Positions 1 through 41,441 of a DNA stretch of 64,000 bases are shown here, piece after piece. The position numbers were made by a program, and so were the translations under genes. Below the pieces are notes generated by a model. It saw nothing but the letters and a program-made list of their open reading frames with translations, was not told where the DNA came from and searched no databases. Origin of the DNA: a virus. The stretch lies in the IMG/VR virus record IMGVR_UViG_3300020474_000993; one strand, 5' to 3'. The stretch's first letter is position 1. Each line of letters begins with the position of its first letter.

Positions 1-51
1 CGAGGCTTTTTCACCTAAAGACATTGCCCATAGTTTCCATAATTTTTTCAT
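1..51 (-). CDS. 5' part of a small conserved T4-like hypothetical protein (MKKLWKLWAMSLGEKAS...), truncated by the window edge
   Basis: ATG at 51 just after the stop of the upstream GT; frame open to the edge; not in the ORF track. Confidence 0.6.
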   Translation of the reverse strand, partial: MKKLWKLWAMSLGEKAS

Positions 52-53
52 CT

Positions 54-866
54 TTACCTCCAATGTTCTAATAGTTTGGGGTCTGCAAGTTCGTCCTGTT
101 TGGTATGTCCTCTACTCTCATCCTCAAACGGTAATAAGTCTACATTAAATACACACAAAATACAATTGGGTCTGTATATACCCACATTCAAATCATCTTC
201 TTCCCATGAACGACCACGATTATATGAGTATGCCATATGTGATGGGAAGTAATCCCACAGTTTAGCACCATACTCTCCCCACCTCCATGAGTGGTAGTTA
301 TCGGTTCCGTCCGTATATGTGAACCATATCTTTTCTTGATTTTTTAAAACATCTTCCCATATAGGTTCACATTGGTCATCACTCCACACTTGACAACTTC
401 CATTCGTGTACGCACCATGTGCTAGTTTAAACTGTCTAGTCTGCATGGGTTTCGGGTCTTGCCACCAAGACCTCATTTTTGTTGGTTGTTCTGTATTGTA
501 AGTTAGAAGTGGTGTAATATCATTTTGAATGATTACATCCAAATCAAAGAAGATGAAGCGTCCTGTCGGCTTATCTGGGCCAAAATTGTGAGTGTTAAAG
601 ACAAAAGTTTTAGGCCTGTCCCAGCAACGAGCCATGCCATACTTAAACTCATCAGCGCCGAACCAGTATTTAGGATGGATGGAATCGATGTCTGGAAATG
701 GGATAACTTTAATATTAGGATCGAGTCCCTTATCGTTATCGGTATAACAGTAGAAATGAAAATCCATTGTCGAAGGTGTATTACGCTTAGACATGTTATA
801 AAGACGGTTAACAAAGTGCGGGCCATATTTTTCTCCCCATTTACTGCAAACTACATTAACTCGCAT
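54..866 (-). CDS. GT-A glycosyltransferase-like protein (CxKWGxKY...DLD family)
   Basis: CSKWGEKY N-terminus, CYTD, FFDLDVII DxD motif; start 866 chosen for the GGAG RBS. Confidence 0.75.
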   Translation of the reverse strand: MRVNVVCSKWGEKYGPHFVNRLYNMSKRNTPSTMDFHFYCYTDNDKGLDPNIKVIPFPDIDSIHPKYWFGADEFKYGMARCWDRPKTFVFNTHNFGPDKPTGRFIFFDLDVIIQNDITPLLTYNTEQPTKMRSWWQDPKPMQTRQFKLAHGAYTNGSCQVWSDDQCEPIWEDVLKNQEKIWFTYTDGTDNYHSWRWGEYGAKLWDYFPSHMAYSYNRGRSWEEDDLNVGIYRPNCILCVFNVDLLPFEDESRGHTKQDELADPKLLEHWR

Positions 867-3372
867 GACAATCTCCACAATTTCTAGTACAAACGCTGAG
901 GGGTTTCCTCTTCAAATGTTGACTTATATTTTCAAAGTCGTGGTTATAAATTATTTCGCCAATGTTAAATTTTGTTGCATCATTATATTTAAAATTATAT
1001 GTATAGTCAATCGGGTGATATGGAAATAGTTTGTGTTCCATAACATCCCTAGCGATGTAAGCACATGGAAAAATGTTGCCTTGTGAATTCACATAAAAGT
1101 ATTCACTTTTCCTCGCGTCACACCACACTGGTTCTTTTTCTTTCATCTTAGGTTTCTTAGTTCGCACTTCCTCTTCTTTCTTAAACCTTTTTAATGTCTC
1201 CAAACTTATTGGAATGTCACTAGCGATACTGTCACTAACCTTAGTTTCATTCTCAGTGGGTTGAGTAGGAAGTACATGTTCAACCCTATCTACAAAAGGT
1301 AGGTCTTTTATATATGCCTTGAATGTCTGTACTGTAATCGTACACCCCAATTTTTCTTTAAAATAACAACAAATTGACTCAATGTGGTCACAATTGGTTG
1401 GGTCAGTAATTTCACATATAAATGTAACCCATTGTAACTTGAAATTTTCAACCACAGTTTTGATAGATTCAAGTGTATGTTCTTTACCATTGACAAAGAT
1501 GTCGTTGAATTCATTCCCAGTATCATTTTGTTTGGTGGATAGTTGTATTAATGCACCTTCTGGATTGCCATCATCATATAATCCTGTGTATAAGTCACTA
1601 TATTGTTCTCCATGCATTTGAAAATACTTGACAAGAGTATCATTATCTTTTACATTACTTTGATTTATAACAGATATAAGTTCTTGTTTAGGCATGATGT
1701 TATACAATCGTTCAAATACTTTCTCATAATCTTCTTTGTAAAATAATTCTTTTAGGTTCTGTAGATAATATTTTTTATAGAGAGATTGCACATCCTCAGT
1801 AGATGCGTCCCAAAATACTCTTTGCATCCCATGTTCTTTAATGTTGTCCATAACATCTTTTTTGATTTGGGGTAGTGTGTTTTTATCCCACAATCTTTTG
1901 TACAACGCGAAACATTGTAGAAAACTTATATTCCAGAAATATCTAACAGGCCCAAGTTCTTTTGCTTCATCAAATGCAGTTAGGTGAGATTTGTATATGT
2001 ATCTTTGTTTATAGAGGTCATATATATCATCTGCATCTTTGTTCCAGTATAGGGACTCATCACCTTGTAGTAGCACAGGGTCATCTGGATAGTCAGCAAG
2101 AAACTTTTTGTGCATCGATATCATATCACCAGAGTCGTATAGTTCCTTGATAATCTTTCTGTGGTGTGGTTCTATTTGTCTTATAAAGATAAGGTCAGAT
2201 ATCTCCCTTTCTAATTCTGGTACATGTACCTTCACTTCAGAAATTGTACCTTTAAAATATTCATCTAATTCTGGGAAATCTTTTATCATTTTTTCTGATA
2301 AAGACTGCAAATCATTTGTTTCAATGAGTTCTTTTATATCTGATATTGTCTCTTTGTCCATATAGTTTTCTTGTAGCATACTATCTGTTAGAGATTCAAA
2401 TCCAATCCATTCTCGTAGTGTTTCAAATTCCTTTGAATATTGTTCCCAATCTTGTTTCAATTGAGGTAAATCTTTAAGAAATTTTTCTTCTAGTGTATCG
2501 TAGTCTTTGGTACGCAGAAGTTGGGATATCTTATTGGTATGTTTGTTTTTATCAAAAAAGTTTTCTGGGAACTTAGGCAACCATAGTTTTTCAAATTCTG
2601 TTTTACCATGCCAGTGTATTAATAAGTTATAGTCTCTCAACTCATGTGGTTTTAGGTTATTTTTATTCCTACCACCAATCGATGCTTCAAAGATACAAAA
2701 CTTTGAATTTTCTCTATACAGGTGTTGCGTGACATCATTGGGATGTTGTCTTCCTCTATTGTAGGAGTAAACCCAATCACTAGGTAGGAACGACCAATAG
2801 TTATCGCCTACTGCTTGATGTTCTCTATATGGGTAGTAGTTGTCGGTTCCTTTCCAAAAGGTTTTAAACACGGTGTCCTTGTGTTTCATTACATCGTTAT
2901 AAATCTTTTCCCCTTGGTCAGTACACCATAACATGACACTAGAGTTATACAATGTGCCACGCATATCTGTAAACCTTCTGTCATTGAGAACTTTTGGATT
3001 TTCCCAATTTGAATAAATCATATGTGGAGTTTTTGATAGTTCAAATATGTCATCGATGTTGTTTTGGATAATGACATCTAAATCCAGATAGCAGAAAGGG
3101 CCTTTAGTTTTTAACCAGTGGTGGGAATTTAAGACAAGAAACTTTGCTCTATCCCAACAATAGTTTTCTTGACCAAACCAGTACCGTGGATGTAGTGGTT
3201 CTACATTCGGGATAGGTCTAGTCTTTATTGATTTCTCTATTCCTTCTGGTTCGTCTGTGTAGCATATAAACTTAAACCGTTTGGAATAGTTTTGCTGAAC
3301 CATTTTGTAGAGATTGTTTACATATTCTGGGGAGTACTTGTTACCCCATTTCATGCAAAGAAAGTGCATCAT
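856..3372 (-). CDS. Fusion: glycosyltransferase + helical repeats + degenerate radical SAM/SPASM domain
   Basis: N-terminal CMKWGNKY/CYTD/YLDLDVII; C-terminus aligns with the radical SAM at 39708 but lacks CxxxCxxC. Confidence 0.7.
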   Translation of the reverse strand: MMHFLCMKWGNKYSPEYVNNLYKMVQQNYSKRFKFICYTDEPEGIEKSIKTRPIPNVEPLHPRYWFGQENYCWDRAKFLVLNSHHWLKTKGPFCYLDLDVIIQNNIDDIFELSKTPHMIYSNWENPKVLNDRRFTDMRGTLYNSSVMLWCTDQGEKIYNDVMKHKDTVFKTFWKGTDNYYPYREHQAVGDNYWSFLPSDWVYSYNRGRQHPNDVTQHLYRENSKFCIFEASIGGRNKNNLKPHELRDYNLLIHWHGKTEFEKLWLPKFPENFFDKNKHTNKISQLLRTKDYDTLEEKFLKDLPQLKQDWEQYSKEFETLREWIGFESLTDSMLQENYMDKETISDIKELIETNDLQSLSEKMIKDFPELDEYFKGTISEVKVHVPELEREISDLIFIRQIEPHHRKIIKELYDSGDMISMHKKFLADYPDDPVLLQGDESLYWNKDADDIYDLYKQRYIYKSHLTAFDEAKELGPVRYFWNISFLQCFALYKRLWDKNTLPQIKKDVMDNIKEHGMQRVFWDASTEDVQSLYKKYYLQNLKELFYKEDYEKVFERLYNIMPKQELISVINQSNVKDNDTLVKYFQMHGEQYSDLYTGLYDDGNPEGALIQLSTKQNDTGNEFNDIFVNGKEHTLESIKTVVENFKLQWVTFICEITDPTNCDHIESICCYFKEKLGCTITVQTFKAYIKDLPFVDRVEHVLPTQPTENETKVSDSIASDIPISLETLKRFKKEEEVRTKKPKMKEKEPVWCDARKSEYFYVNSQGNIFPCAYIARDVMEHKLFPYHPIDYTYNFKYNDATKFNIGEIIYNHDFENISQHLKRKPLSVCTRNCGDCHAS

Positions 3373-3994
3373 AATATTTTTTTCTCAAATCGTAATTGAC
3401 TTCATTCTGTCCATTTAATAGAACAACTGGATAATCTGGTTTTATTTGATGAGCTCTCGGTGAGGTATCTGTTTCCATGTCTACCCCAGCAAGAAATGAA
3501 TATATCAACCCCTTGGGGAATGTTCTCTTGAACATTTTTTCATCATATAAAAAGTTATCATCCTTACCTTGATATTTATGCAAGTTGTAGTCCCAGTTTT
3601 TAAAAAAGTTCTCTGTTATATAGGCGGCATTATCACAGTGCCATGCCATAACACTAGAGTTCCACATTCCACCAAAGTCTTTCCAGTAGGTTTCACATAT
3701 AGTAGGTTCATCACAGTATTCAAATAGTGGGCCAAGGTCTCCCTGTACGATTACATCTAAGTCTAAATATAAAGTTGGGCCACCGAAATTACTTTTTAGG
3801 AGTACAATTTTTTCCCAGTTTCCGATACATGTGCTGATGCGTTGGGTTAATATTCCTTGTTCTAGTCCAGAGTTGTCATCTGTGCGACACCAGAAGTTGC
3901 CGCCTCGTAGATAAGGTTTACACATATTATAAATAGTGTTTACATCATTGGAAGAGTATTTGTTTCCGTATTTTAGTGTAACAATAGATCTCAT
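3341..3994 (-). CDS. GT-A glycosyltransferase-like protein
   Basis: TLKYGNKY, CRTD, YLDLDVIV, WNSSVM; start at 3994 avoids overlap with the divergent gene. Confidence 0.7.
   Translation of the reverse strand: MRSIVTLKYGNKYSSNDVNTIYNMCKPYLRGGNFWCRTDDNSGLEQGILTQRISTCIGNWEKIVLLKSNFGGPTLYLDLDVIVQGDLGPLFEYCDEPTICETYWKDFGGMWNSSVMAWHCDNAAYITENFFKNWDYNLHKYQGKDDNFLYDEKMFKRTFPKGLIYSFLAGVDMETDTSPRAHQIKPDYPVVLLNGQNEVNYDLRKKYYDALSLHEMG
3928..3935 (+). promoter_or_regulatory. T4-type late promoter TATAAATA for the 4016 gene, embedded in the opposite-strand GT
   Basis: Exact gp55 consensus about 80 nt upstream of the ATG. Confidence 0.55.
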
Positions 3995-4015
3995 AAATTT
4001 AAAGGTATATATTCC

Positions 4016-4351
4016 ATGGCAAAAAAAGTAATCAAAAATATAACCATAGACCAAGGTTCTACTTTCAGCGATACCATTACTGTTACAACAGATGGTTCAA
4101 CTGTTAAAAACCTTACTGGCTATACAACAACATCACAGTTTAGAAAAAGCTATGACAGTACTACTTATACAAGTTTTACAACCGCTCAAGTGGACGCTAC
4201 TGGAGTTATAACCTTATCTCTTACTGCAACACAAACCACCGCACTCAAGTCTGGTAGGTATGTGTATGATGTAGAGATTGCTAACTCTCCCGAAGTATTG
4301 AGAGTACAGGAAGGTATCATTACGGTATCCCCACAAGTAACAAAATCATAA
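4016..4351 (+). CDS. Conserved small virion structural protein (beta-rich)
   Basis: IDQGSTF...GRYVYDVE...EG.ITVSP.VT pattern typical of T4-like marine phage virion proteins. Confidence 0.6.
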   Translation: MAKKVIKNITIDQGSTFSDTITVTTDGSTVKNLTGYTTTSQFRKSYDSTTYTSFTTAQVDATGVITLSLTATQTTALKSGRYVYDVEIANSPEVLRVQEGIITVSPQVTKS

Positions 4352-4361
4352 GGAAAAGGAA

Positions 4362-4511
4362 GTGAGCAATATTAGAGATTGGCGTGTTAAACAACAAGAC
4401 ATGACTGAGTTAAACGGAGATGGCAATAGAGACAGGGGTAGGTATGGGGAAGATGAACCCAAACAAATCCAAGAAGATAAGCCTGTCTCGGAAGCCAAAA
4501 AGGAAAAATAA
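4362..4511 (+). CDS. Small hypothetical protein, 49 aa (MSNIRDWRVKQQDMTELNGDGNRDRGRYGEDE...)
   Basis: GTG start after AAGGA; TAA overlaps the next ATG; fills the gap exactly. Confidence 0.55.
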   Translation: MSNIRDWRVKQQDMTELNGDGNRDRGRYGEDEPKQIQEDKPVSEAKKEK

Positions 4512-6025
4512 TGGATGAGTTGACTAAACTTTTTGAGGCAATTGCAAAAGAGAAAACAAGGACTCTTGATTTGCAAAAAGAAGAAGTCCTCAAGCAAGTT
4601 AAAAAAACTGAAAAGAAAAACGCCCATCGTTCCAAAGTAAAAGAAGACTTTTGGGGGGTGTTTAAGAGCGAACTCAAAAAACTTTCCGAAGAAGAAGAAC
4701 AAAATAAAAATAAGTTAGAAAAGTTAGAGGAAATCAGAGATGAGTTCAAAGATGTAACTCCAATATTATATAAAGAAGAGGTTGAAGAAGAACAAAAATC
4801 AGTTGCTCCCGACTTCCTTGTAGACATCGACCCACAAAAAATGGCAAATGAGTTTGATATTACTCCAGTTAGTAAGATATCAGAAGTGATTATGCCATAC
4901 TCAAAAGAACCATATCAATTAAAAGACCATCCCACGGAACTCATTGAACAACCAGAGGACAATCAAGACCCAGACATTTTTGCCTTAGAGTCAAAAGTTA
5001 ATGAGTTAGAAATGAAGTATGCTGGTGCGGTAGAAGAAATAGAAGAGATAACGGAAGAAGCGCAACCAGAGACATTTAATGTAACTAAAGATGCTTACAG
5101 TGCGGTTATGGATGTTCTTAGTCTCAGACCTGTAGAGAAGAAAGACAAGGATGAAAGACAACTACAAGAACTTGCTGTACAATATCTTGCTGAGAAAAAA
5201 CAAGTTGTACAGGAACAGGTTGATGAAACCGCAAGTGTTCAAAAACAAATAGCAGATATCAATGCGAATATACGACAATTAATATTGGGTATGCAAGGTA
5301 TCGGTGGCGGTGGTGAGGTTCGACTAGAACGCTTAGATGATGTTGACCGTTCATCCGCTACAACAGACGGTAGGTTCCTACGATATAGTTCTTCCACTAA
5401 GAAGTGGGAAGGTGTTGCAATTGATACTGGTGACCAAGCTGCAATCCTAGATAATTCTGGAACACCATCACTTGCAACAGGTGTGACTGCATCTGAAATT
5501 AGAACATTAATTGACGCCCAACAATCTGGTTCTTATGTAACCCTTAGTGGATTGTCTGTGGGTAGTGAAGCATCCGCATCTGGTGATGGTGGGATAGCAT
5601 ATAATAATAGTACTGGTGTATTTACATACACACCACCAGATTTATCTACGAAGGCAAACCTTGCTAGTCCAGCGCTTACTGGTAACCCAACTGCGCCGAC
5701 ACAATCTGCAAGTGATAACAGTACGAAGATTGCTACAACTGCCTATGCTGATACAGCAGTTGCGAACATTGTTGATTCATCACCGGCAGCTTTAAATACT
5801 CTGAATGAACTTGCAGCTGCTTTGGGAGATGATGAAAACTTCTCTACTACAGTTACAAATAGTATTGCTACTAAAGCACCGTTGGCTAATCCAGTATTAA
5901 CAGGAACACCAGCTGCTCCAACCGCTTCAACAGGTACTAACACAACACAGATTGCTACTACAGCATTTGTAAAACAAGAGATAGACGCTCTCAAAGCCTT
6001 ACTATACGCTTACGACCAATCCTAA
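4511..6025 (+). CDS. Fibre/whisker-like structural protein
   Basis: Acidic coiled coil, GGGGEVRLERLDDVD motif, two KA.LA.P.LTG.P.APT tail-fibre repeats and PAALNTLNELAAALG; wac-like position before gp13. Confidence 0.65.
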   Translation: MDELTKLFEAIAKEKTRTLDLQKEEVLKQVKKTEKKNAHRSKVKEDFWGVFKSELKKLSEEEEQNKNKLEKLEEIRDEFKDVTPILYKEEVEEEQKSVAPDFLVDIDPQKMANEFDITPVSKISEVIMPYSKEPYQLKDHPTELIEQPEDNQDPDIFALESKVNELEMKYAGAVEEIEEITEEAQPETFNVTKDAYSAVMDVLSLRPVEKKDKDERQLQELAVQYLAEKKQVVQEQVDETASVQKQIADINANIRQLILGMQGIGGGGEVRLERLDDVDRSSATTDGRFLRYSSSTKKWEGVAIDTGDQAAILDNSGTPSLATGVTASEIRTLIDAQQSGSYVTLSGLSVGSEASASGDGGIAYNNSTGVFTYTPPDLSTKANLASPALTGNPTAPTQSASDNSTKIATTAYADTAVANIVDSSPAALNTLNELAAALGDDENFSTTVTNSIATKAPLANPVLTGTPAAPTASTGTNTTQIATTAFVKQEIDALKALLYAYDQS

Positions 6026-7033: not shown

Positions 7034-7786
7034 ATGGCTACGAATGTTTATTTCCAATCAGGCAATACCAGTGGTACTACTAACGAACAGCGTCTAGTAG
7101 AAGACTTGGTTATTGAAAGTCTAAAGATATATGGACACGATGTTCATTATATGCCTAGGACTTTGGTAAACAGGGATACAATTTTTGATGAAGATGAATT
7201 ATCCAAGTTCACACAACAATACCCCCTTGAAATGTACATGGAGAATGTCGAAGGATATGAAGGAGAGGGTGAACTATTTACCAGATTTGGTATAGAAATT
7301 AGAGACCAAGCAACTTTTATCCTATCTAAAAGACGATGGGAACAAATGGTTGACCGAGAAAAAGATAGTGGTGGCACTTTTCAGTTAGACGCGAGACCAG
7401 CAGAGGGTGATTTGTTGTACTTCCCCAAGACAAAATCTTTATTTGAGATTAAACTTGTGGAGTTTCAAAATCCTTTTTACCAGTTAGGAAAAATTTATAC
7501 TTTTAGGATGCAATGCGAACTCTTTGAATACAGTTCAGAAAGACTTGATACTGGTGATACGGATATTGATGGAATCGAAGACTTACAAAGTCTTGACATT
7601 CTACAGTTCCAGTTCCAATTAGAAAACGGAGACTTGCTGAAACAAGAAAATAATGACACTCTGATACTAGAAAGTTTCCAAACTAGTAGGGGTAATACTG
7701 GTGTAGATAATGCAGACTTTGATGCATGGCAAACTGCATCTAATATACTTGACTTTACGGAGTCTAATCCATTCGGTGAAATATAA
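7034..7786 (+). CDS. gp14: Neck protein gp14
   Basis: ESLKIYGHDV.YMPR, PFYQLGK.Y, CELFEYS; synteny. Confidence 0.92.
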   Translation: MATNVYFQSGNTSGTTNEQRLVEDLVIESLKIYGHDVHYMPRTLVNRDTIFDEDELSKFTQQYPLEMYMENVEGYEGEGELFTRFGIEIRDQATFILSKRRWEQMVDREKDSGGTFQLDARPAEGDLLYFPKTKSLFEIKLVEFQNPFYQLGKIYTFRMQCELFEYSSERLDTGDTDIDGIEDLQSLDILQFQFQLENGDLLKQENNDTLILESFQTSRGNTGVDNADFDAWQTASNILDFTESNPFGEI

Positions 7787-8781
7787 TGTTTAAAAATAAA
7801 CAATTTTATAATCAACATACACGCAAAGCTATTATTGCATTTGGTACTATCTTTAATAATATCCAAATAAATAGAGTTAATGCTGGTGGTGTTACTGAAC
7901 AAGTTATTCGGGTTCCTCTTTCATATTCTACAAAACAAAAGTTTCTGACTAGGATTGAGGCAATTCCAGATACGGAATCTCGTGGAGAGGTTGCAATTAG
8001 TTTGCCTCGCATGGGGTTTGAAATTGTAGGATTCCAATATGACCCATCAAGAAAGGTCTCACCCATACAAAAAAACATAACTACTAGTGGTGCAGAAACC
8101 AATTCATATAAAACAAGTTTCGTATCTACACCATATGATATGAATATGTCTTTGTATGTTTTTGCAAAGAACCAAGAGGATGCCTTACAAATAGTAGAAC
8201 AAGTGTTCCCATACTTCAACCCAGATTTTAATGTGACTATAAATGATTTGCCTGAGTTGGGTATAAAAAGAGATATCAAAATAACTTTGGATAGTGTTAG
8301 TTATGAAGATACCTTTGAAGGTGCATTTGCAGACAGACAAGCTATTAACTGGACACTTAACTTTACAATGAAATTAAATTATTATGGATTTGTAGATAAA
8401 CAATCATTTATCAAAAAAGCAATAGCACAAACATATGAGAATAATGACTTTCTAGGGCCTAGAGTTCAACAGTCGTTCTCAGTTGGGACTACACTACCAA
8501 CCGCAACCGCTACAATAGGTAGTGGTTCGGTAACAGATTTTACTATAACATATGGTGGAGCGGGATATACTAGTCCACCTAACATTACTCTTACTGGTAA
8601 CGCGAGGGCACATGCCGAGATTACTAATGGAGAAGTAACAAGTATTGTTATAGATGATGCTGGGAGTGGTTATTCAGAAGCACCTACTGTGACATTTGAA
8701 GAACCACCTAATTATAATGCAGACCCCTATAAGGATGACCCATATAGGTTCGTGGAGGAGTTTGACCAAACTTATGTATAA
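7786..8781 (+). CDS. gp15: Tail terminator/sheath stabiliser gp15 with C-terminal beta-rich extension
   Basis: AFGTIFNNI, LPRMGFE, QIVEQVFPYFNP. Confidence 0.9.
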   Translation: MFKNKQFYNQHTRKAIIAFGTIFNNIQINRVNAGGVTEQVIRVPLSYSTKQKFLTRIEAIPDTESRGEVAISLPRMGFEIVGFQYDPSRKVSPIQKNITTSGAETNSYKTSFVSTPYDMNMSLYVFAKNQEDALQIVEQVFPYFNPDFNVTINDLPELGIKRDIKITLDSVSYEDTFEGAFADRQAINWTLNFTMKLNYYGFVDKQSFIKKAIAQTYENNDFLGPRVQQSFSVGTTLPTATATIGSGSVTDFTITYGGAGYTSPPNITLTGNARAHAEITNGEVTSIVIDDAGSGYSEAPTVTFEEPPNYNADPYKDDPYRFVEEFDQTYV

Positions 8782-8783
8782 CT

Positions 8784-9227
8784 ATGCCAAAAAATAAAGT
8801 ATTTGATGCACTCGATAAAACATTCAACACCGTAACTACAGAAATTGCTGAAAAAAAAGGTGGGGCTATCGCTGTGCCCGATAAAGAAGAAGAAAAACTA
8901 GACAAGGACTTTGAGGAAGCAAGAAACCTTTTAAAGCGTTCTGCTGAGTACGCGGAAGAAGCCGCTCAAGGTATCTTGCATGTCGCTACCAATAGTGACA
9001 ACCCTCGTGCCTATGAAGTTGCTGGACAAATCATCAAGACTATGGGTGAACAAGCTAAAGACATGATGGAAGTCCAAGAGAAGAAACATCGAATTGAAAA
9101 AAATTCGGATGCACCCAAGACTATTAGTAAGACAACTAACAACCTAGTATTCACTGGAACAACTTCAGAACTTATGAAACAATTGAAAGCAGAGAACGAA
9201 AAAATTATAGACCATGAGCAAGATTGA
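8784..9227 (+). CDS. gp16: Terminase small subunit gp16
   Basis: PRAYEVAGQ, NNLVFTGTTSEL; synteny. Confidence 0.9.
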   Translation: MPKNKVFDALDKTFNTVTTEIAEKKGGAIAVPDKEEEKLDKDFEEARNLLKRSAEYAEEAAQGILHVATNSDNPRAYEVAGQIIKTMGEQAKDMMEVQEKKHRIEKNSDAPKTISKTTNNLVFTGTTSELMKQLKAENEKIIDHEQD

Positions 9228-39707: not shown

Positions 39708-41441
39708 ATGTTTGATTACAATCTAATAGATGAATATCAGATTGAGGTTACTACTTACTGTAACGCCGCTTGTCCTCAATGTCCGAGGAATGTAAACGGT
39801 GGTAAGACTAATCCCTATCTACCAGTTTGTCATTTAGATAGAGATGTAATAGATGTTGCATTTCCTAAGTCCCTAGTAAAGAGACTGAGACAGGTTTTCT
39901 TTTGTGGCAGTTATGGTGACCCTATTATGCATCCAGAGTTCTTGGATATACTCAAGGATTTTAGGAGTAAAAACCCAACTCTGCATCTCTACCTTCACAC
40001 TAACGGAGGAGTCCGTGATATTAAATGGTGGGAAGAGATTGCTGAAGTGCTGGGTGACCATGGCAAAATTGATTTTGGTATTGATGGAATATGGGATACC
40101 AATCATCTTTACCGAAGAAATGTAGATTTTTCTCGCGTGATTGAAAACGCGAAAGCATTTATAAATGCTGGTGGAAAAGCACAATGGAACTATCTGGTAT
40201 ACAAACACAATGAACACCAGATATCAGAAGCAAAAAAGATGTCTGAAGAACTGGGGTTTGATGATATACTGTTTAGGTCAACTGGTAGGTTTATGAACCA
40301 CAAAACTCTTACTGAGTTAGAAAAGTGGCCAGTGCAAAACAGAGATGGTGAAATAGAATATTATTTAGAACCACCCACAGACAAACAGTACCACAATAGT
40401 AGTGTTGAGAATCTACCCAGACTACATGAAGAGTATCCAGATATAAAGGATTACTTCAACGAGACCAAAATAAAATGTGACGCTCTCACTGGAAAGAAAG
40501 TGGCAATTACTGCCGAAGGTTTAGTCTTACCATGTAATTTCTTTGAACACAATCTTTACGACATGAGATTTCATAAAAGAGATTCATTTCCTAGTAGTAA
40601 TGATTATCACTTTGATGAAGATGGCAATAACCAAGTTATGTCTCTTATCAATAGACATAATGGTGATGACCAGAATTTAAACATTCACAGTCAACCATTA
40701 GATAAAATTTTTAAAAGTGAGTTTTGGAAAGAGATTGTATGGTCATGGGAACAAGATATAGGGTGTGGCAAAATATTTGAGTGCGCTATGACTTGTGGAC
40801 AGAAGTTAACTAAAGTATGGGATCAAAATAAAAAGATGAAAGAAACTTATCGATATTATATCACAGGTAACAATCGCGGATTGGGACTAGACTTAGCAAA
40901 ACATTTTAATGGTGATGGATGTTCCAGAAGTACTGGCCAGATGCTTACTGATATTACAACTAAGGTTGGTATTCAAAGAATAGTAGAACAAAGTTTACAC
41001 TATGATGTGTTTATCAATAATGCATTTGATGGCCCGCCAGATGAACCTTGGGGTAATTTCGCTCAAGTAAATTTATTGTTAGCGGTATTTAAGGCATGGA
41101 AAGAAGAAAACAAGTCTGGATATATTTTTAATATCGGAAGTACTGGGGCATTAAGTGCCAGAGTTAGTCATGACAGATATGCAATTGCTAAGGACGCCCT
41201 TGCTACCGCGAGTAGACAATGTTCCAAGGCATTTAAAGATGACCTAGTTAAATTTAAAACTACCTTGATTACGCCAGGCAGATTGGACACACCATTGAGT
41301 AGAGGTAGAGAAACATGGACAGGCAACGGTGTGAAAACGCTTGACATTTGCAAGTTTATAGAGTATACTATGGGCATAGAAAATAATAGTATAATTGAAG
41401 ACATCATTATTGATGTTAATTTGGAGTATGGTAATGAGTGA
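39708..41441 (+). CDS. Radical SAM/SPASM(twitch) enzyme fused to a C-terminal SDR oxidoreductase
   Basis: CNAACPQC, GDP, HTNG; C...PC...C...CG auxiliary cluster; ITGNNRGLG, FINNA, YAIAK. Confidence 0.85.
   Translation: MFDYNLIDEYQIEVTTYCNAACPQCPRNVNGGKTNPYLPVCHLDRDVIDVAFPKSLVKRLRQVFFCGSYGDPIMHPEFLDILKDFRSKNPTLHLYLHTNGGVRDIKWWEEIAEVLGDHGKIDFGIDGIWDTNHLYRRNVDFSRVIENAKAFINAGGKAQWNYLVYKHNEHQISEAKKMSEELGFDDILFRSTGRFMNHKTLTELEKWPVQNRDGEIEYYLEPPTDKQYHNSSVENLPRLHEEYPDIKDYFNETKIKCDALTGKKVAITAEGLVLPCNFFEHNLYDMRFHKRDSFPSSNDYHFDEDGNNQVMSLINRHNGDDQNLNIHSQPLDKIFKSEFWKEIVWSWEQDIGCGKIFECAMTCGQKLTKVWDQNKKMKETYRYYITGNNRGLGLDLAKHFNGDGCSRSTGQMLTDITTKVGIQRIVEQSLHYDVFINNAFDGPPDEPWGNFAQVNLLLAVFKAWKEENKSGYIFNIGSTGALSARVSHDRYAIAKDALATASRQCSKAFKDDLVKFKTTLITPGRLDTPLSRGRETWTGNGVKTLDICKFIEYTMGIENNSIIEDIIIDVNLEYGNE
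41341..41369 (+). promoter_or_regulatory. Internal sigma70 promoter for gp44 (TTGACA-17-TATACT)
   Basis: Near-perfect consensus inside the 3' end of the rSAM-SDR gene. Confidence 0.7.

Follow-up and report, generated by a model that had tools for sequence, protein, structure and literature searches.

A predicted glycosyltransferase of marine T4-like phages fused to a degenerate radical SAM remnant with a conserved twitch-like tail

Among radical S-adenosylmethionine (rSAM) enzymes, a twitch domain holds one auxiliary cluster and a SPASM domain holds two, and the role of these auxiliary clusters is still debated (PMC9012708). The twitch rSAM dehydrogenases BtrN and SpeY and the SPASM enzymes SuiB and PqqE are described examples. 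In pelagimyophages, glycosyltransferase (GT) genes of the GT8 type and rSAM cassettes occur in the hypervariable region of the tail-fiber genes, where the authors proposed that they modify the host O-chain (PMC7029224). Here, we describe a gene that joins elements of both kinds in a stretch of 64,000 nucleotides from the IMG/VR virus record IMGVR_UViG_3300020474_000993; we refer to the whole stretch as the window. The gene (positions 856..3372, minus strand, as given by the list of open reading frames [ORFs] and its translation) encodes P0001, a protein of 838 amino acids (aa) consisting of a GT8-like GT, helical repeats, a dead rSAM remnant, and a twitch-like tail. Like the pelagimyophage and cyanomyophage cassettes, the island of genes around P0001 belongs to marine T4-like phages and combines GT8 and rSAM elements among tail-fiber genes. 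However, the published account describes neither this fusion nor a dead rSAM, and the island of P0001 is conserved and syntenic, whereas the region described there is hypervariable. The building blocks of the fusion are all known, and the combination is a new variant: a GT joined to a degenerate rSAM with a twitch domain is not represented as such in Pfam, NCBIfam, or PHROGs, and it did not surface in a full-text literature search.

The architecture of P0001 is common to 19 full-length homologues in our protein collection (42 to 95% identity, alignment A1). As proposed in an earlier interpretation made from the letters of the window alone (the sequence-only reading), viral metagenomes were searched for the same fusion, and 403 stretches in IMG/VR were found to encode relatives of P0001. 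Counts of residue conservation given below refer to 45 distinct full-length homologues. Family searches on P0001 returned only three weak signals, namely, PHROG 1962, a subthreshold match to Pfam SPASM, and a weak match to DUF6557. An NCBIfam search gave no match for P0001 or for its short form P0024, and a profile of the P0001 family found nothing meaningful among the PDB sequences. We used two further alignments, one of the C-terminal module family (A2) and one of a live rSAM-twitch family including its dead members (A4).

The C-terminus had been read as a catalytically dead derivative of an rSAM enzyme, and our analyses agree. Residues 590 to 700 (1273..1605, minus strand) form a remnant of the rSAM barrel, comprising beta1 to beta3 and one further strand, as delimited by hhalign, BLASTP, and the AlphaFold2 (AF2) model. 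In the beta1 loop, the CxxxCxxC motif that binds the SAM cluster is replaced by TKQNDTGNEF; none of the 45 homologues has the motif at this position, whereas the aligned live relatives do. The remnant retains a GGE-like element, CEITDP, and beta4 to beta6 are deleted, with approximately 110 to 130 residues missing in the hhalign alignment where these strands lie in live enzymes. The Pfam Radical_SAM model does not match P0001. Relative to the radical-SAM superfamily (PF04055), P0001 therefore shows common descent but neither the CxxxCxxC motif nor a SAM-binding TIM barrel. Because both the CxxxCxxC site and beta4 to beta6 are lost, the module cannot bind SAM canonically or form the 5'-deoxyadenosyl radical. 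Tails of this kind should therefore not be annotated as "radical SAM/SPASM" enzymes.

Behind the remnant lies a charged linker (residues 701 to 745; 1138..1272, minus strand), identified from A1, A4, and hhalign, with a conserved helix motif, LETLK..F...E.R, that is common to the live rSAM family and the P0001 family. The twitch/SPASM-like domain follows (residues 746 to 838; 859..1137, minus strand; Pfam and alignments), with cysteines arranged as C751-x18-C770 and, later, C828-x3-C832-x2-C835. All five (C751, C770, C828, C832, and C835) are present in 44/44 homologues with residues at these columns. Other tail residues are invariant too, including W750, R754, R775, D776, H786, and D789. The sequence-only reading had noted that four SPASM/twitch cysteines remain; it was right about their retention, which is strongly conserved, but undercounted them, as five are invariant. 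A twitch cluster has four cysteine ligands and a full SPASM domain seven to eight, and thus the pattern, judged from sequence, fits a twitch domain with one auxiliary cluster rather than a full SPASM domain. The Pfam SPASM model (PF13186) matches residues 751 to 832 at 17.4 bits (E = 0.0055), below its cutoff of 21.5 bits, which aligned relatives exceed (P0031, 23.8 bits; P0030, 22.3 bits; P0033, 22.2 bits).

Structure prediction, which had been suggested as a check on the domain, points to the same class of enzymes. The AF2 model of the module has a predicted local distance difference test score (pLDDT) of 80 to 92 in the barrel remnant. The best Foldseek match was BtrN (E = 4.5e-4, prob 1.0), and SuiB, viperin, and SpeY ranked next. 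When the model was compared with representative structures by VIA-align, the top 13 were all radical-SAM enzymes, with Z scores of 10.8 for SuiB, 10.8 for PqqE, and 10.7 for BtrN, and the matches to these three each span model residues of about 6 to 223. BtrN, SpeY, SuiB, and PqqE match both the start of the barrel and the C-terminal auxiliary-cluster domain of P0001. The layout is twitch-like in that P0001 has a Cys-x18-Cys hairpin followed by later cysteines, in a number suiting one auxiliary cluster. Unlike these four enzymes, P0001 is without CxxxCxxC, has only approximately 3 to 4 of the six barrel strands, is fused behind a GT, and has no radical chemistry.

The nearest relatives of the module outside the fusion family are proteins of 500 to 521 aa with a Pfam Radical_SAM domain (P0030, P0031, and P0045), which we found by an exhaustive phmmer search with residues 590 to 838. 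The matches to live rSAM+SPASM proteins run through the tail (E from 6e-13 to 1e-9), and in P0030 and P0031 a SPASM domain scores above the cutoff as well. These uncharacterized proteins consist of an N-domain, a live rSAM domain, and a twitch domain; they share the linker and twitch motifs with P0001 and, unlike P0001, keep the CxxxCxxC motif and the full barrel. BLASTP aligned the module with P0030 in two colinear segments, one over the twitch part (E = 3e-16) and one over beta1 to beta3 (E = 3e-6; P0001 597 to 695 with P0030 166 to 278, spanning the CxxxCxxC of P0030). The profile alignment of A2 with A4 (hhalign) has a probability of 99.8% and an E value of 6.4e-30 over 222 columns, with one long gap at beta4 to beta6. 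Similarity to the live family is thus highly significant by both pairwise and profile methods. The colinear alignment with an rSAM enzyme that had been drawn by eye also holds, as all five of its motif pairings fall on the tool alignments, far beyond what chance would give.

We estimated the ratio of nonsynonymous to synonymous substitution rates (dN/dS) with pairwise NG86 on 54 pairs with dS between 0.1 and 1.2. The ratio is 0.032 for the GT domain, 0.046 for the repeats, 0.025 for the barrel remnant, 0.047 for the linker, and 0.033 for the twitch part. Conservation of the twitch part equals that of the GT domain even in the homologues farthest from P0001 (60 to 72% compared with 57 to 70%). 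The low values for the remnant and the twitch part bear out the suggestion that a pseudo-enzyme has been retained. Given the strong purifying selection and the five invariant cysteines, the module must have a non-radical job; on sequence grounds, it functions without radical chemistry and is not in decay. This abundant family of marine phage proteins has lost the radical machinery while its auxiliary-cluster domain has been kept under strong selection.

The N-terminus had been read as a GT, and this reading stood. Residues 1 to 275 (2548..3372, minus strand) are predicted to form a GT-A fold domain of the GT8-like type (similar to glycogenin, LgtC, and LARGE1), based on PHROG 1962, AF2, and Foldseek. 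PHROG 1962 ("glycosyltransferase") matches residues 6 to 118 (E = 1.9e-5). The AF2 model of the domain has a moderate mean pLDDT of 63, with core strands at 80 to 92. Against the PDB, Foldseek matched this model to glycogenin (E = 1.7e-7, prob 1.0, TM 0.51 to 0.56), then to LARGE1, LgtC, UGGT, and further GT8 entries; there were 203 matches at E <= 1e-3, and among the matches listed all are GT-A/GT8-type transferases. The predicted structure thus has the GT-A fold, and the sequence has the DxD motif, D97-L98-D99 (3076..3084, minus strand), which binds the metal and the nucleotide sugar in GT-A enzymes; D97 and D99 are invariant in 45/45 homologues. A second motif, H253-W-H-G256-K257 (2602..2616, minus strand), has H253 and G256 invariant in 45/45 and K or R at position 257. 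We take it to resemble the GT8 metal-ligand motif HxxGxxKPW, a match made by eye rather than by structural alignment. With these motifs intact, the domain is probably an active GT. It shares the GT-A fold, the DxD motif, and a C-terminal His-containing motif with glycogenin, LgtC, and the xylosyltransferase domain of LARGE1, and it differs from these GT8 enzymes in its low identity (approximately 15% in structural alignments) and in having no match to Pfam Glyco_transf_8.

Between the GT domain and the module, residues 276 to 589 (1606..2547, minus strand) consist of helical tandem repeats, recognized by internal repeat matches (E of about 1e-6) with units starting near residues 282, 346, and 408. 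Homologues vary in length from 729 to 912 aa. The proteins P0005 to P0007 (about 910 aa) contain an extra 71-aa repeat copy, which in P0005 is 56% identical to the resident copy (E = 3e-28); the length of the spacer therefore evolves by unit duplication. Repeats are missing from two naturally short homologues, P0024 with 454 aa and P0025 with 504 aa, whose GT is joined straight to the module. These comparisons suggest that the repeats behave as a spacer arm of adjustable length. The only Pfam match in this region is the weak one to DUF6557, and an ESM Atlas look-up of the region gave no usable match.

We favor, as reasonably probable, the reading that P0001 is an active GT whose retained C-terminal module performs no radical chemistry, probably binds a metal, and serves in recognition or assembly, with the protein working in an island of several GTs. 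The protein would be a retaining-type GT8-like enzyme with intact catalytic motifs, and its C-terminal 250 residues descend from an rSAM enzyme with a twitch domain, that is, one with a single auxiliary cluster. The module may be stabilized by a metal, most likely one [4Fe-4S] cluster and possibly zinc, and may still bind what the ancestral enzyme bound, either the substrate common to both, such as a glycan or an acceptor that carries one, or partner proteins. The helical-repeat arm of variable length could position the GT domain within a multi-enzyme pathway of glycan building encoded by the island, whose target would be a virion (fiber) protein or a host surface glycan.

Several points weigh against this reading. 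The cysteines are only putative cluster ligands, and the twitch part of the AF2 model is of low confidence (pLDDT 38 to 65). The substrate-recognition and assembly roles are pure inference, and the activity of the GT is deduced from motifs alone; a Pfam scan of P0001 found no GT model, including Glyco_transf_8, at E <= 1. The pairs used for dN/dS are not independent, and their dS is high (up to about 1). Finally, the timing of island transcription could not be read from the sequence, and so a virion target and a host-surface target are not told apart. Prediction of a complex of the GT domain with the C-terminal module scored 0.00, which we count neither for nor against this reading.

A more specific possibility, which we hold only tentatively, is that the twitch domain, no longer tied to radical chemistry, has kept a [4Fe-4S] cluster and controls the GT, as a cluster-dependent module that binds the acceptor or glycan or as one gated by redox state or oxygen. 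If true, this would be a new class of iron-sulfur-dependent GT accessory domain in which the role of an auxiliary cluster could be studied without the SAM cluster.

We consider it somewhat unlikely that the cysteines hold zinc or make only disulfide or structural contacts, so that the module would be a mere folding or oligomerization domain without inherited ligand binding. Five cysteines, including a terminal CxxxCxxC spacing, could form a zinc site. In addition, some dead relatives in A4 (P0035 and the protein encoded by ORF 7380-8867 of locus L080) persist without the last two cysteines, and thus an incomplete set of ligands is compatible with the fold. However, the many invariant non-Cys residues of the twitch part, and the several motifs it shares with live enzymes, are more than a simple structural metal site needs.

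Alternatively, the module might act in trans with a live rSAM enzyme of the phage, as a substrate-presenting partner or as a relay for clusters or electrons, in the manner of a pseudo-enzyme with its active paralogue. Related genomes offer candidates, with 8 to 9 Radical_SAM matches each, including a cluster of approximately seven, and twitch and SPASM auxiliary clusters have been proposed as electron acceptors (PMC9012708). However, no rSAM gene of that set lies in the island and the module profile finds none of them, and we regard this explanation as improbable.

Still harder to sustain is the proposal of the sequence-only reading that the dead module serves as a redox sensor or docking module coupling the GT island to the rSAM-SDR enzyme P0002, encoded approximately 36 kb away at 39708-41441. 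That enzyme does belong to the same broad rSAM subfamily, as P0002 and P0030 share an rSAM core (E = 1e-24). It is also the only rSAM type in related genomes that the module profile touches, and it adjoins a cytidylyltransferase-cupin gene, whose product could supply a donor sugar. The direct similarity is marginal, though: BLASTP of the twitch part of P0001 against the 39708 enzyme gives an E value of 0.002, which is weak alone, and hhalign of the module against this enzyme alone gives an E value of 0.026 and a probability of 1.9% over the beta2/beta3 part, too weak to stand alone. Homology of the module to the 39708 enzyme is therefore transitive, through the rSAM core that the enzyme shares with P0030.

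We examined the co-occurrence of the fusion and the 39708 type in five long viral contigs (G001 to G005). In G001, a 95% identical twin, an orthologue of the 39708 gene is present at the same distance of approximately 36 kb from the fusion. In G003 (100% complete) and G004 (70%), there is only a 30%-identical rSAM without the SDR part, at a similar distance. G002, which is 100% complete and has the fusion, contains no 39708-type gene; G005 (a fragment, 58% complete) has no match to the 39708 enzyme and is uninformative. Thus, the three genomes with the fusion that are at least 90% complete comprise one with a 39708 orthologue, one with a 30%-identical short rSAM, and one with none. Synteny is tight within the island; the 39708 cassette, in contrast, is part of the replication module, where it is flanked by gp45 and gp44. 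Among the approximately nine rSAM genes of the twin genome, the module profile touches only the 39708-type gene, and its match to the 39708-type gene of G004 is weak (E = 1.7e-4). The 39708 enzyme is neither the parent of the module nor co-conserved with it. The description of the module as a paralogue of the phage's own rSAM is only loosely supported: of all rSAM proteins that the phage encodes, the 39708 enzyme is the closest, but the true nearest family is that of P0030, P0031, and P0045. The link across 36 kb is not supported, given a complete genome in which the fusion occurs without a 39708-type gene.

It is hardly credible that the module is an unconventional catalyst with C828-x3-C832-x2-C835 as a relocated SAM-cluster site: although this spacing matches that of the canonical rSAM motif and does not vary within the P0001 family, the deleted half-barrel carries the ribose, GxIxGxxE, and beta6 SAM-binding elements, and a third cysteine is absent from the terminal CxxxCG of P0030, P0031, and P0045, which are live, and of the 39708 enzyme. 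This marks the site as the ancestral auxiliary site and not a SAM site.

The relatives in A4 suggest how the fusion may have arisen. Live members of this family are P0030, P0031, P0045, and P0049, and they are rare, with four clusters against hundreds for the dead fusion. In P0033, P0035, P0043, P0044, and the protein of L080 ORF 7380-8867, the CxxxCxxC loop has been cleanly excised, and two of these proteins are also without the back half of the barrel, like P0001. Loss of CxxxCxxC is therefore recurrent in the family, since P0033, P0035, P0043, and P0044 show the same precise excision.

Live and dead relatives also occupy the same genomic slot. The gene immediately downstream of P0045 and of P0030 is an orthologue of GT-c, the GT gene that follows the fusion in the window (60 to 64% identity to the window GT-c), and another GT comes next. 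Two loci with a live rSAM (L084 2532-6768 and L086 1892-5376) contain, in this order, genes for a GNAT acetyltransferase, the live rSAM-twitch protein, GT-c, and GT-d, together with a methyltransferase-like gene in L084. In L080 (6001-9534), GT-a is followed by a stand-alone GT-b (261 aa), then by a 495-aa dead protein of the A4 type and by GT-c. The stand-alone GT-b is 56% identical to the GT domain of P0001, and the 495-aa protein has an N-domain without DxD, a dead rSAM, and a twitch-like tail without the last two cysteines. The split form in L080 and the fusion in the window would thus constitute a link of the Rosetta-stone type between GT-b and the module. The simplest reading of this synteny is that an rSAM-twitch gene in the slot upstream of GT-c, which elsewhere is occupied by a live or already dead form, lost its radical chemistry here and fused to GT-b. 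Similarity of the A4 N-domain to the GT is confined to approximately the first 50 residues (hhalign probability 69%), and this N-domain is without DxD. A "reciprocal decay," with a live rSAM and dead GT in one family and a live GT and dead rSAM in the other, is an attractive idea but is weakly supported. We also considered whether the helical repeats of P0001 are a decayed N-domain; no homology to the N-domain of the L080 split-form protein was detected, leaving this idea unsupported. Live, half-dead, and fully dead relatives in one genomic slot provide an evolutionary series for the study of stand-alone twitch function.

The window comes from a T4-like myovirus (GC content of 36 to 41%) that encodes a neck protein, gp15, terminase, sheath, gp45, gp44/62, regA, gp43, uvsX, and cobS. 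Its terminase has at most 49% identity to that of any cultured phage, the nearest being those of Synechococcus myophages. Upstream of the fusion, GT-a (3341..3994, minus strand; 217 aa from the M at 3994; PHROG 1962, E = 4e-9) is a paralogous GT that overlaps the start of the fusion gene, a position conserved in all long related loci. Downstream, GT-c (54..866, minus strand; 270 aa) is another paralogue, which shares 37% identity with the GT domain of P0001 (BLASTP, 1.4e-59). For the DNA to the left of the window, we used a 95% identical IMG/VR contig (L033/G001) as a stand-in. The complete order is GT-a, GT-b with the module, GT-c, a 2-oxoglutarate (2OG)-Fe(II) oxygenase (variable), GT-d, and a methyltransferase-like gene, followed by a convergent part that encodes proteins of 208, 170, and 324 aa, with a GT8-like gene between the first two. 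The island comprises five GTs and a methyltransferase-like gene, sometimes with a 2OG oxygenase, among tail-fiber genes, and all 31 long related loci share its gene order, even where the fusion is as little as 43% identical. A conserved, putatively glycan-building island of approximately ten genes in this setting bears on how marine T4-like phages decorate virions or host surfaces.

The 324-aa protein (L033 13360-14334) has a Tyr/Gly-rich repeat at its C-terminus and is always convergent with the GT island. A homologue flanks the live-rSAM island in L084 (38% identity, E = 5e-38). Glycogenin-type GT8 enzymes glycosylate tyrosine, and the 324-aa protein is a candidate acceptor of the island chemistry.

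Two genes diverge from the island in the window, a small tail-fiber-assembly-like gene (4016-4351, plus strand) and a tail-fiber gene (4511-6025). A 146-aa ORF on the minus strand (4387-4827) was rejected as a member of the island; its product is Ser/Leu-rich and of low complexity, it is antisense to the tail-fiber gene, and it is probably not a gene. A promoter and terminator scan of positions 1-4700 found fewer sigma-70-like sites than in shuffled sequences and no late-promoter motif on the minus strand. Only approximately 21 bp separate the start of GT-a (3994, minus strand) from that of the tail-fiber-assembly-like gene (4016, plus strand). A T4 late-promoter-like TATAAATA at 3928-3935, for the plus-strand gene at 4016, lies inside the GT-a coding sequence; across the window, 15/15 occurrences of TATAAATA are on the plus strand, compared with 5.2 expected.

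Two further observations concern genes at a distance from the island. G001 to G004 each have 8 to 9 Radical_SAM matches in open frames of approximately 260 to 580 aa (in G001, for example, at 476-5018 and 154961-160479), an unusually large rSAM set for a phage; the tight cluster of approximately seven rSAM genes lies outside the window. In the window, the segment 37355-41441 holds four genes between gp45 and gp44, encoding a peroxiredoxin (Redoxin), a member of the Mom family (PF25680, E = 1.5e-59), a protein in which a cytidylyltransferase is joined to a mannose-6-P-isomerase-type cupin, and the rSAM-SDR fusion, and it may be a nucleotide-sugar or DNA-modification cassette.

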